A stretch of 648 nucleotides of DNA from Escherichia coli (GCF_003334385.1 NZ_QOWN01000155.1); one strand, 5' to 3'; shown: positions 1 to 648, counted from the first letter of the stretch. Notes: generated by a model from the letters alone, not told the origin. Made by a program: numbers and translations.

Positions 1-648
1 ACAGGCACGGGCACAGAACGCGCAGTATCTGAGCGAACGCCTTAAGGACCAGGCAGCCTTTTATGCCGAATCGGATGTGCAGCGTGCGGACTGGCAGAAA
101 GGGCTGCAGGAGGGGCTCAGTAACTGGGTGGACAATGCATCCGATTACGCCTCTCAGGCAGCACAGCTGGCAACGGAGGGGATTTCAGGACTGGTGAATA
201 ACATCACGGAGATGCTGAACGGAAACAAAGTGGAATGGCGCAACTGGGCCTCATCCGTACTGCAGGAAATATCAAAAGTTCTTATGAATGCGGCCATTGT
301 CAACGGAATTAAGACGGCGGCAAACGGTATGTCCGGTGCGGGAGGATTTATTGGCAGCATTGGTGACTGGCTGGGCGGTGCGGTGGCCAATGCAAAAGGC
401 GGCGTGTATACCTCGGCAAACCTGAGCGCGTACAGCAACAGTATTGTGGATACGCCCACGTACTTTGCCTTTGCAAAAGGGGCCGGGCTGATGGGGGAAG
501 CCGGACCTGAAGCCATTATGCCCCTGACCCGGGCGGCGGATGGCTCGCTGGGCGTACGCGCGGTGGGCAGTATGAACGGGAGTGCGGGTCTGGTGTATTC
601 CCCGGTCTACCACATCGCCATTCAGAATGACGGGGCCAACGGTCAGAT
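1..648 (+). CDS. Phage tail tape measure protein (lambda gpH-like), internal/C-terminal fragment; partial at both ends, codon phase begins at nt 2 (complete codons 2..646)
   Basis: Seen in sequence: the +2 frame is open across the entire window (215 codons, no stop), whereas the +1 frame hits TAA at 43-45. Codon usage is GC-rich at third positions with frequent CTG/CAG/GCG, typical of enterobacterial genes. From recalled knowledge: the translation has a QA-rich helical region with aromatics at 11-residue spacing, a Gly-rich hydrophobic segment (AANGMSGAGGFIGSIGDWLGGAVANA) and a C-proximal 'HIAIQNDGANGQ' block resembling lambda gpH's 'HVVINNDGTNGQ' region. No start or stop codon of the gene lies in the window. 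Confidence 0.88.

Follow-up and report, generated by a model that had tools for sequence, protein, structure and literature searches.

A 648-nucleotide stretch of Escherichia coli DNA encodes part of the C-terminal module of a lambda-type tail tape measure protein

Introduction

The tail tape measure protein (TMP) of phage lambda, gpH, is cut within a glycine-rich region, which yields gpH* and a piece of about 14 kDa that is known as gpHC (PMC12617516). Residues 818-849 of gpH assemble into a trimeric coiled coil that is held by a gpI tripod within the tail tip's lumen (PMC10721106, PMC12617516), and residues ~690-817 are absent from the resolved structure (PMC12617516). In phage T5, the TMP pb2 contains a hydrophobic stretch and, after it, a segment of 43 residues by which the processed TMP is anchored in the opened hub; pb2 is cleaved after R1127 and its C-terminal piece is located in the hub cup (PMC10038345). 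The TMP of RcGTA consists of a long helix, 83 residues of strands and loops, and then a 20-residue helix (PMC7296036). Of the F-pyocin TMP PA0636/PyoF5, residues 579-611 alone have been modelled.

Here, we describe a stretch of 648 nucleotides from E. coli (GCF_003334385.1, NZ_QOWN01000155.1), which will be referred to as the window, meaning the whole stretch that was analysed. A first-pass annotation, made from the sequence alone, had held that every base of the window belongs to one coding frame of a recognisable gene family, that of the TMPs, and that the window contains no independent novel system. We have compared the window with its relatives, with protein and RNA families and with the TMPs mentioned above.

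Results

The window is covered by a single reading frame of the tape measure protein family

Three-frame translation of the 648 nucleotides revealed that the plus-strand frame starting at base 2 runs through 215 codons with 0 stops; the other two plus-strand frames contain 8 and 9 stops. The product of the open frame matched PHROG 1716, a TMP family, over residues 1-215 (E-value of 2.7e-106), the NCBIfam model TIGR01541 'tape_meas_lam_C' over profile positions 119-332 of 332 (178.5 bits, with a curated cut-off of 104.75 bits), and the Pfam family PF09718 over residues 30-101 (E-value of 1.3e-18). The curated family thresholds are exceeded, and the product of the window is the C-terminal module of a lambda-type TMP, minus its last helix. 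These matches, together with the annotations of the relatives that are described below, confirm that one coding frame of a recognisable family covers the window and that this family was correctly named. We consider it close to certain that the window (positions 1-648, plus strand) is an internal segment of the TMP gene in an Escherichia prophage of the lambda-like siphovirus type. As read from relatives that are 96-99% identical to the window, in which the TMP has 1080 residues and is encoded by a gene of 3243 nt, codons 1-215 of the window, with the frame at base 2, represent residues 833-1047 of the complete protein.

The TMP frame was open in all 92 distinct homologues, and 88 of the 111 variable columns fall on the third codon position of this frame. 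The most distant relative that could be aligned without gaps shows 76 nucleotide differences from the window versus 17 amino acid differences. Purifying selection acts on the TMP frame only.

Relatives, gene position and allele structure

Gap-free alignments at 93-97% nucleotide identity were obtained with 91 phage records, mostly of Stx-converting phages, and all annotated ones among them carry the TMP label. Megablast against 5,426 complete genomes of E. coli detected matching prophages in 1,264 of them, the best identity being 97.8%. The content of the window is already known, namely as an ordinary fragment of a TMP gene that is annotated in more than 1000 E. coli genomes. Its closest relatives are TMP genes of E. 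coli lambdoid and Stx prophages, for example those of the ABU 83972 prophage (WP_000212987.1; L002) and of Stx2a_WGPS2, which belongs to the genus Sawaravirus (YP_009909099.1; L001). These are 96.6-97.8% identical to the window over the 648 bases without any gaps, use the same frame as the window and differ from its product by 1-5 amino acids.

In Stx2a_WGPS2, the TMP coding sequence extends from 2506 to 5748 and the equivalent of the window from 5001 to 5648, the respective positions in ABU 83972 being 3506-6748 and 6001-6648. In the relatives, the window begins at codon 833 and the TMP stop lies 100 nt beyond its end; in both Stx2a_WGPS2 and ABU 83972 there is an 8-nt overlap between this stop and the beginning of the gene M homologue. 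The gene order in the relatives is tail tube, chaperones G/T, TMP, M, L, K (a C40 peptidase), I and J. The position of the TMP gene between the G/T chaperones and gene M was observed in the L001 and L002 loci and in a prophage of E. coli SW070917 (L156), which are 96-98% identical to the window. The window contains no intergenic space, as had been claimed, because it lies wholly inside the 3243-nt TMP gene of its annotated relatives.

Several observations concern the downstream parts of these tail modules. Positions 8370-10648 of Stx2a_WGPS2 contain three transposase genes, an insertion sequence, on the opposite strand between genes I and J, immediately behind the gene I homologue. In ABU 83972, the gene I homologue and gpJ are separated by an unannotated gap of 338 nt (9113-9450), the gap of lambda at this place being 60 nt. 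In E. coli SW070917, the tail module ends after gene L, and genes for a cytosine methyltransferase, a Com-family regulator and a recombinase follow on the opposite strand (8431-13601). Lacking genes K, I and J, the SW070917 prophage must be rearranged or defective.

A whole-window match of 100% was not found among the 5,426 complete E. coli genomes searched by megablast or in IMG/VR searched with exact patterns of 71 nt and 55 nt, and the exact 55-nt pattern had 0 matches in the GTDB species-representative genomes. The best whole-window identity in IMG/VR was 99.4% (contig L015). An exact match to positions 58-112, in the 5' part of the window, was present in 55 IMG/VR contigs and an exact match to positions 575-648, in the 3' part, in 8 contigs; the sole contig matching both parts has an identity of 96% to the window as a whole. 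The 5' and 3' parts of the window match exactly different groups among the TMP alleles of its relatives and, judged from these matches, the window is a mosaic (recombinant) allele. Such a mosaic structure is the usual recombination pattern for lambdoid tail genes.

We regard it as quite unlikely that the prophage of origin is defective and that the window, as a decaying remnant of it, no longer encodes a functional protein. This possibility is suggested by the occurrence of truncated or rearranged prophages among the relatives, such as the one with a tail module cut after gene L, and by the annotation of the TMP in one further relative (L004) as frameshifted. However, the frame of the window itself is intact, and the differences from its closest relatives are nearly all synonymous, with 14 nucleotide differences but only 1 amino acid difference from ABU 83972.

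Search for other elements within the window

No tandem repeats were detected in the window with Tandem Repeats Finder, and the repeat search yielded nothing beyond two-copy matches that were short (10-25 nt) and imperfect. The absence of a repeat array, as previously asserted, is therefore upheld. Rfam matches were likewise absent at E-values up to 10, and scans of the window for tRNA and tmRNA genes, promoter-like and terminator-like sites, Chi sites and a Shine-Dalgarno sequence combined with an in-frame internal start were all negative. The sequence GATC is absent from the 648 nt, for which about 2.5 copies would be expected, but this deviation is not significant. Folding of the whole window gave unremarkable z-scores, -1.63 for the plus strand and +1.66 for the minus strand.

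When both strands were scanned for folds in sliding windows of 100 nt, the only region with a stable structure was found on the plus strand at positions 26-175. It contains an mRNA hairpin of 24 pairs at positions 49-110 (plus strand) with an energy of -31.4 kcal/mol and a z-score of -3.37. That this hairpin is a functional RNA element of the late mRNA, for example a signal for processing, pausing or stability, seems very improbable. In its favour, only 1 of 200 shuffled sequences was as stable, the 100-nt windows across positions 26-175 had z-scores of -2.3 to -3.1, and the counts of pairing and of double changes were above those in shuffled controls. However, the hairpin was chosen after a scan of 44 windows, and the excess of pair counts is inflated, as the structure was derived from the window itself and 13 of the 25 aligned rows are close relatives. 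Moreover, within the close allele group changes without compensation shift the hairpin energy between -32 and -20 kcal/mol, and a 69-nt segment has a mean z-score of -2.1 in the 12 alleles that are at least 90% identical to the window versus 0.0 in the 38 more distant ones. In homologues with less than ~70% identity, the pairing of the reference hairpin even has a positive energy. The hairpin has no Rfam match, and no significant synonymous reduction is seen in the window. It is therefore probably a lineage-specific accident. Accordingly, the earlier statement that the window lacks any RNA-like structure is correct as far as known RNA families, tRNA and tmRNA genes are concerned, but it overlooked this one lineage-specific hairpin.

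Two long open reading frames are present on the minus strand, one of 120 amino acids at positions 154-516 and one of 113 amino acids at positions 272-613. The idea that either of them is an antisense gene within the TMP gene that makes an independent small protein is extremely improbable. Both are long and have start codons, and among the 21 alleles with at least 92% identity to the window, 19 keep the former intact and all 21 the latter. However, at 85-92% identity the former is intact in 1 of 6 alleles and the latter in 0 of 5, and below 85% identity neither is intact in any of 8 alleles. Stops interrupt both frames in relatives that are 88-90% identical, and in one allele a start codon is lost. 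The length of the antisense frames matches the chance expectation for this protein and codon usage: upon shuffling of synonymous codons, with the TMP protein sequence and codon usage kept, open runs of at least the two observed lengths arose in 24% and 26% of 2,000 shuffles (p-values of 0.24-0.26). Furthermore, substitutions track the codon positions of the TMP frame, and there is no promoter-like site on the minus strand of the window. At E-values below 0.2, no PHROG match was found for the antisense frames or for two small plus-strand ORFs, and the PADLOC defence models matched neither the TMP fragment nor the antisense frames nor these two small ORFs. The two antisense frames are by-products of the sense frame and not genes. 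The same argument may be reused for other structural genes of phages that are rich in G+C and contain long ORFs on the antisense strand. The first-pass annotation had seen no second credible ORF; this judgement stands in the sense that no ORF of up to 120 amino acids is conserved, although the antisense frames of 120 and 113 amino acids do exist.

Distant-mode BLAST searches showed that positions 455-570 of the window are conserved at the DNA level in the TMP genes of Klebsiella, Edwardsiella, Aeromonas and Pseudomonas phages. The encoded residues are 99-100% conserved, yet 3-6 different codons are used at almost every degenerate position. Indeed, the normalised synonymous entropy is highest in the stretch encoding the invariant block that is described below (0.70-0.78 versus a mean of 0.63). 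The lowest entropy over 15 codons was 0.39 (codons 81-95), a value that was matched or beaten in 557 of 2,000 permutations, and nowhere in the window was synonymous change significantly suppressed. Because the synonymous diversity is highest at positions 455-570, the conservation of this region must be at the protein level, and a nucleotide-level element underneath it is ruled out. The constraint is on the protein alone.

Altogether, the tests for ORFs, repeats, RNAs and synonymous constraint were all null, which supports the earlier view that no separate system is present. The window can thus be dropped from searches for new systems.

Anatomy of the encoded segment

The anatomy of the encoded protein segment was derived from an alignment of 22 homologues with 47-97% identity to the window, in combination with PDB and family matches. 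An AlphaFold2 model of the 215-residue fragment, computed with a 22-sequence alignment, showed helices at residues 2-109, but with a mean pLDDT of 36 and a pTM of 0.21 the model is unusable.

Residues 1-101 constitute a helical region that includes the Tape_meas_lam_C domain PF09718 (residues 30-101; positions 89-304, plus strand), which aligns with residues ~628-698 of lambda gpH. By BLASTP, the helical region is 33% identical to gpH 612-698 over 87 residues (E-value of 5e-15), and the profile match to 8iyk_H spans 607-735. The helical domain is followed by a linker that is rich in Gly, Ala and Ser (residues 102-129; positions 305-388, plus strand; 57% G+A+S) and that aligns with lambda residues 699-730. 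This linker is prone to indels, and insertions of up to ~20 residues within it distinguish the homologues. By its place in the alignment, it is the counterpart of the Gly-rich stretch in which gpH of lambda is split into gpH* and gpHC. We considered a membrane helix in the Gly-rich stretch and rejected it, as the Kyte-Doolittle maximum over 19 residues was 0.87-1.02 and the usual threshold is 1.6.

The linker is followed by a beta/loop block of 57 residues (residues 130-186; positions 389-559, plus strand), in which 32 residues are invariant across the 22 homologues. Its sequence reads NAKGGVY..S..LS..S......P..FAFAKGAG.MGEAGPEAIMPLTR..DGSLGVR. The block matches the model NF058675 RcGTA_tape (residues 67-191, E-value of 1.3e-20) and chain 5 of PDB entry 25vf (25vf_5, E-value of 1e-23). 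In the alignment of the 22 homologues, the switch from invariant to variable sequence is sharp and occurs directly after the Arg of DGSLGVR.

The remainder of the window encodes a variable linker (residues 187-215; positions 560-646, plus strand) that ends in HIAIQNDGANGQ, opposite Q817 of lambda gpH. In a full-length alignment of the ABU 83972 TMP with gpH, HIAIQNDGANGQ pairs with HVVINNDGTNGQ (806-817). The next 33 residues beyond the window in ABU 83972 and in the IMG/VR contig L015, IGPEAAGSLVQLIDQRVQAVMLSMRRDGGMLSG, align with lambda 818-850. The final residue of the window is thus located directly before the counterpart of the gpI-binding helix of lambda.

As a side observation, two unrelated cassettes seem to occur in TMPs between the Gly-rich stretch and the last helix. 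The cassette of the window (389-559) is of the GEAGPEAIMPL type and that of lambda gpH (~731-805) of the FHFATGGF...VHRGEFVF type. At the matching place, gp46 of phage JBD30 has the sequence FGFASGGHIKG (~1017-1027).

A porin gene in the flanking tail genes of relatives

The first-pass annotation had reasoned that any novelty would have to lie in sub-domains of the TMP or in the flanking sequence, and it had advised an inspection of the flanks for cargo genes. This reasoning was sound, given that the window spans the part in which lambda-type TMPs are least understood and that close relatives carry a porin gene downstream of the TMP stop, and the inspection, which was carried out in the relatives, located this OmpC-family porin gene between the tail genes M and L. 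In the contig L015, which is 99.4% identical to the window, the M and L homologues are separated by an ORF of 387 residues on the same strand. This gene occupies positions 1236-2399 of L015 (minus strand), equivalent to positions 6252-7415 of the SW070917 locus (plus strand), and starts ~540-550 nt downstream of the TMP stop. The L015 porin scored 496.7 bits on the OmpC subfamily model NF007841, for which the cut-off is 484. Its identity to K-12 OmpC is 57%, with gaps concentrated in two segments, and its identity to the NmpC/OmpD-type porins of other lambdoid phages is 68-69%.

The porin was present, with 99.7-100% protein identity, in 6 of the 6 loci that have the private 3' allele of the window and enough downstream sequence. 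A porin cargo gene within the tail-tip operon is thereby linked to the allele group of the window, and the source locus of the window is predicted from this linkage to carry the porin as well. The junction M-porin-L, with an identity of at least 99%, was detected in 22 complete E. coli genomes, where the gene has the RefSeq label 'ompC'. Variants of the porin at the M-L position have 87% (L030), 84% (L034) and 83% (L122) protein identity to the L015 porin. As diverged variants hold the same position, the cargo porin appears to be diversifying or exchanged.

Upstream of the porin gene in E. coli SW070917 is an A+T-rich spacer of 206 nt (6046-6251), which has the exact 16-mer TTTACATTTTGAAACA in common with the upstream region of K-12 ompC. 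We take this 16-mer to be an OmpR C1 box. The segment downstream of the porin gene (7416-7611) contains, at 7573-7591, a strong G+C-rich hairpin that resembles a terminator, AGGGGCGCATTGCGCCCCT with T7 behind it; gene L starts about 20 nt further on. The porin insert has the layout of a moron, with a regulatory region, a gene and a terminator. In the open-access literature, we found no description of a porin between the tail genes M and L.

Discussion

From work on lambda, T5, RcGTA and F-pyocins, a role can be proposed for the module that is encoded by the window. During assembly, the gpI plug would keep the C-terminus of the TMP within the tail-tip complex, and polymerisation of the tube would take place around the TMP. 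The module of the window would then link the long helical ruler to the tip anchor, and it probably holds the site at which the TMP is processed during maturation. Upon receptor binding, the module may leave the tip first, after which the rest of the TMP would form a conduit across the cell envelope. Within the module, the invariant block would most likely provide protein-protein contacts in the lumen of the tip or tube that serve assembly or ejection, although our confidence in this role is low. Chain 5 of 25vf, which has 612 residues and is present in three copies, is probably the F-type pyocin TMP PA0636/PyoF5, an identification made only from length, chain number and name. If so, the block should act in the assembly of the tail tip, in the retention of the TMP or in its ejection. 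A function in DNA handling is argued against by the fact that the DNA-free F-pyocins appear to keep the block.

A more specific and rather doubtful reading is that the invariant block (389-559) is a processing and anchoring module. The TMP would be cut after the invariant Arg of DGSLGVR, just as cleavage of T5 pb2 takes place after R1127; the downstream piece would stay with the gpI plug, and the new C-terminus would hook the channel-forming part of the TMP to the opened tip. The basis of this reading is circumstantial, namely the switch from invariant to variable sequence after the Arg and the retention of the block in DNA-free particles. If it were true, a cut at this Arg would locate the TMP maturation site for lambda-type tails, gene transfer agents and F-pyocins.

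The likeness of the window-type TMP to T5 pb2 and to gp46 of Pseudomonas phage JBD30 is architectural only, consisting in a C-terminal trimeric hub helix that is preceded by a proposed or demonstrated anchor segment. T5 pb2 was absent from the PDB matches at E-values up to 1, the window has no T5-like metallopeptidase motif, and JBD30 gp46 gave no significant BLASTP alignment with the product of the window. The Pseudomonas phage DNA matches to the window come from phages other than JBD30. We also considered mapping the JBD30 'hook plus cleavage at R1066' onto the window, but this was ruled out as gp46 cannot be aligned.

A closer relation exists with the RcGTA TMP g11 (Rcc01694; NF058675) and with chain 5 of 25vf, both of which share the end of the helical domain and the invariant beta/loop block with the window. 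They also have the order of a helix, a beta/loop region and a C-terminal helix in common with the window-type TMP, but with 220 residues for RcGTA and 612 residues for 25vf chain 5 they are much shorter. The score of the window product on NF058675 was 74.1 bits and did not reach the curated equivalog cut-off of 220, so that the relation to RcGTA is one of a shared domain only. The invariant block thus reaches from E. coli prophages to gene transfer agents.

Lastly, the last 350 residues of lambda gpH (NP_040595.1; PDB 8IYK/8IYL/8K35 chain H) are colinear with the TMP of ABU 83972, although gpH has 853 residues and the window-type TMP 1080. Both proteins have the helical domain, a Gly-rich stretch after it, the motif before the last helix (HIAIQNDGANGQ in the window-type TMP and HVVINNDGTNGQ in gpH) and that last helix, which binds gpI in lambda. 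In contrast, gpH does not have the invariant NAKGG...GEAGPEAIMPLTR...DGSLGVR block and carries an unrelated sequence in its place, and its profile match stops at the Gly-rich stretch. Because gpH is devoid of this block, what is known about processing in lambda may not transfer to the window-type TMP. Taken together, the processing and structural data on lambda suggest that the window corresponds to the end of gpH*, to the region of cleavage and to that part of gpHC which is absent from the structure, and it spans the least understood part of the lambda-type TMPs.
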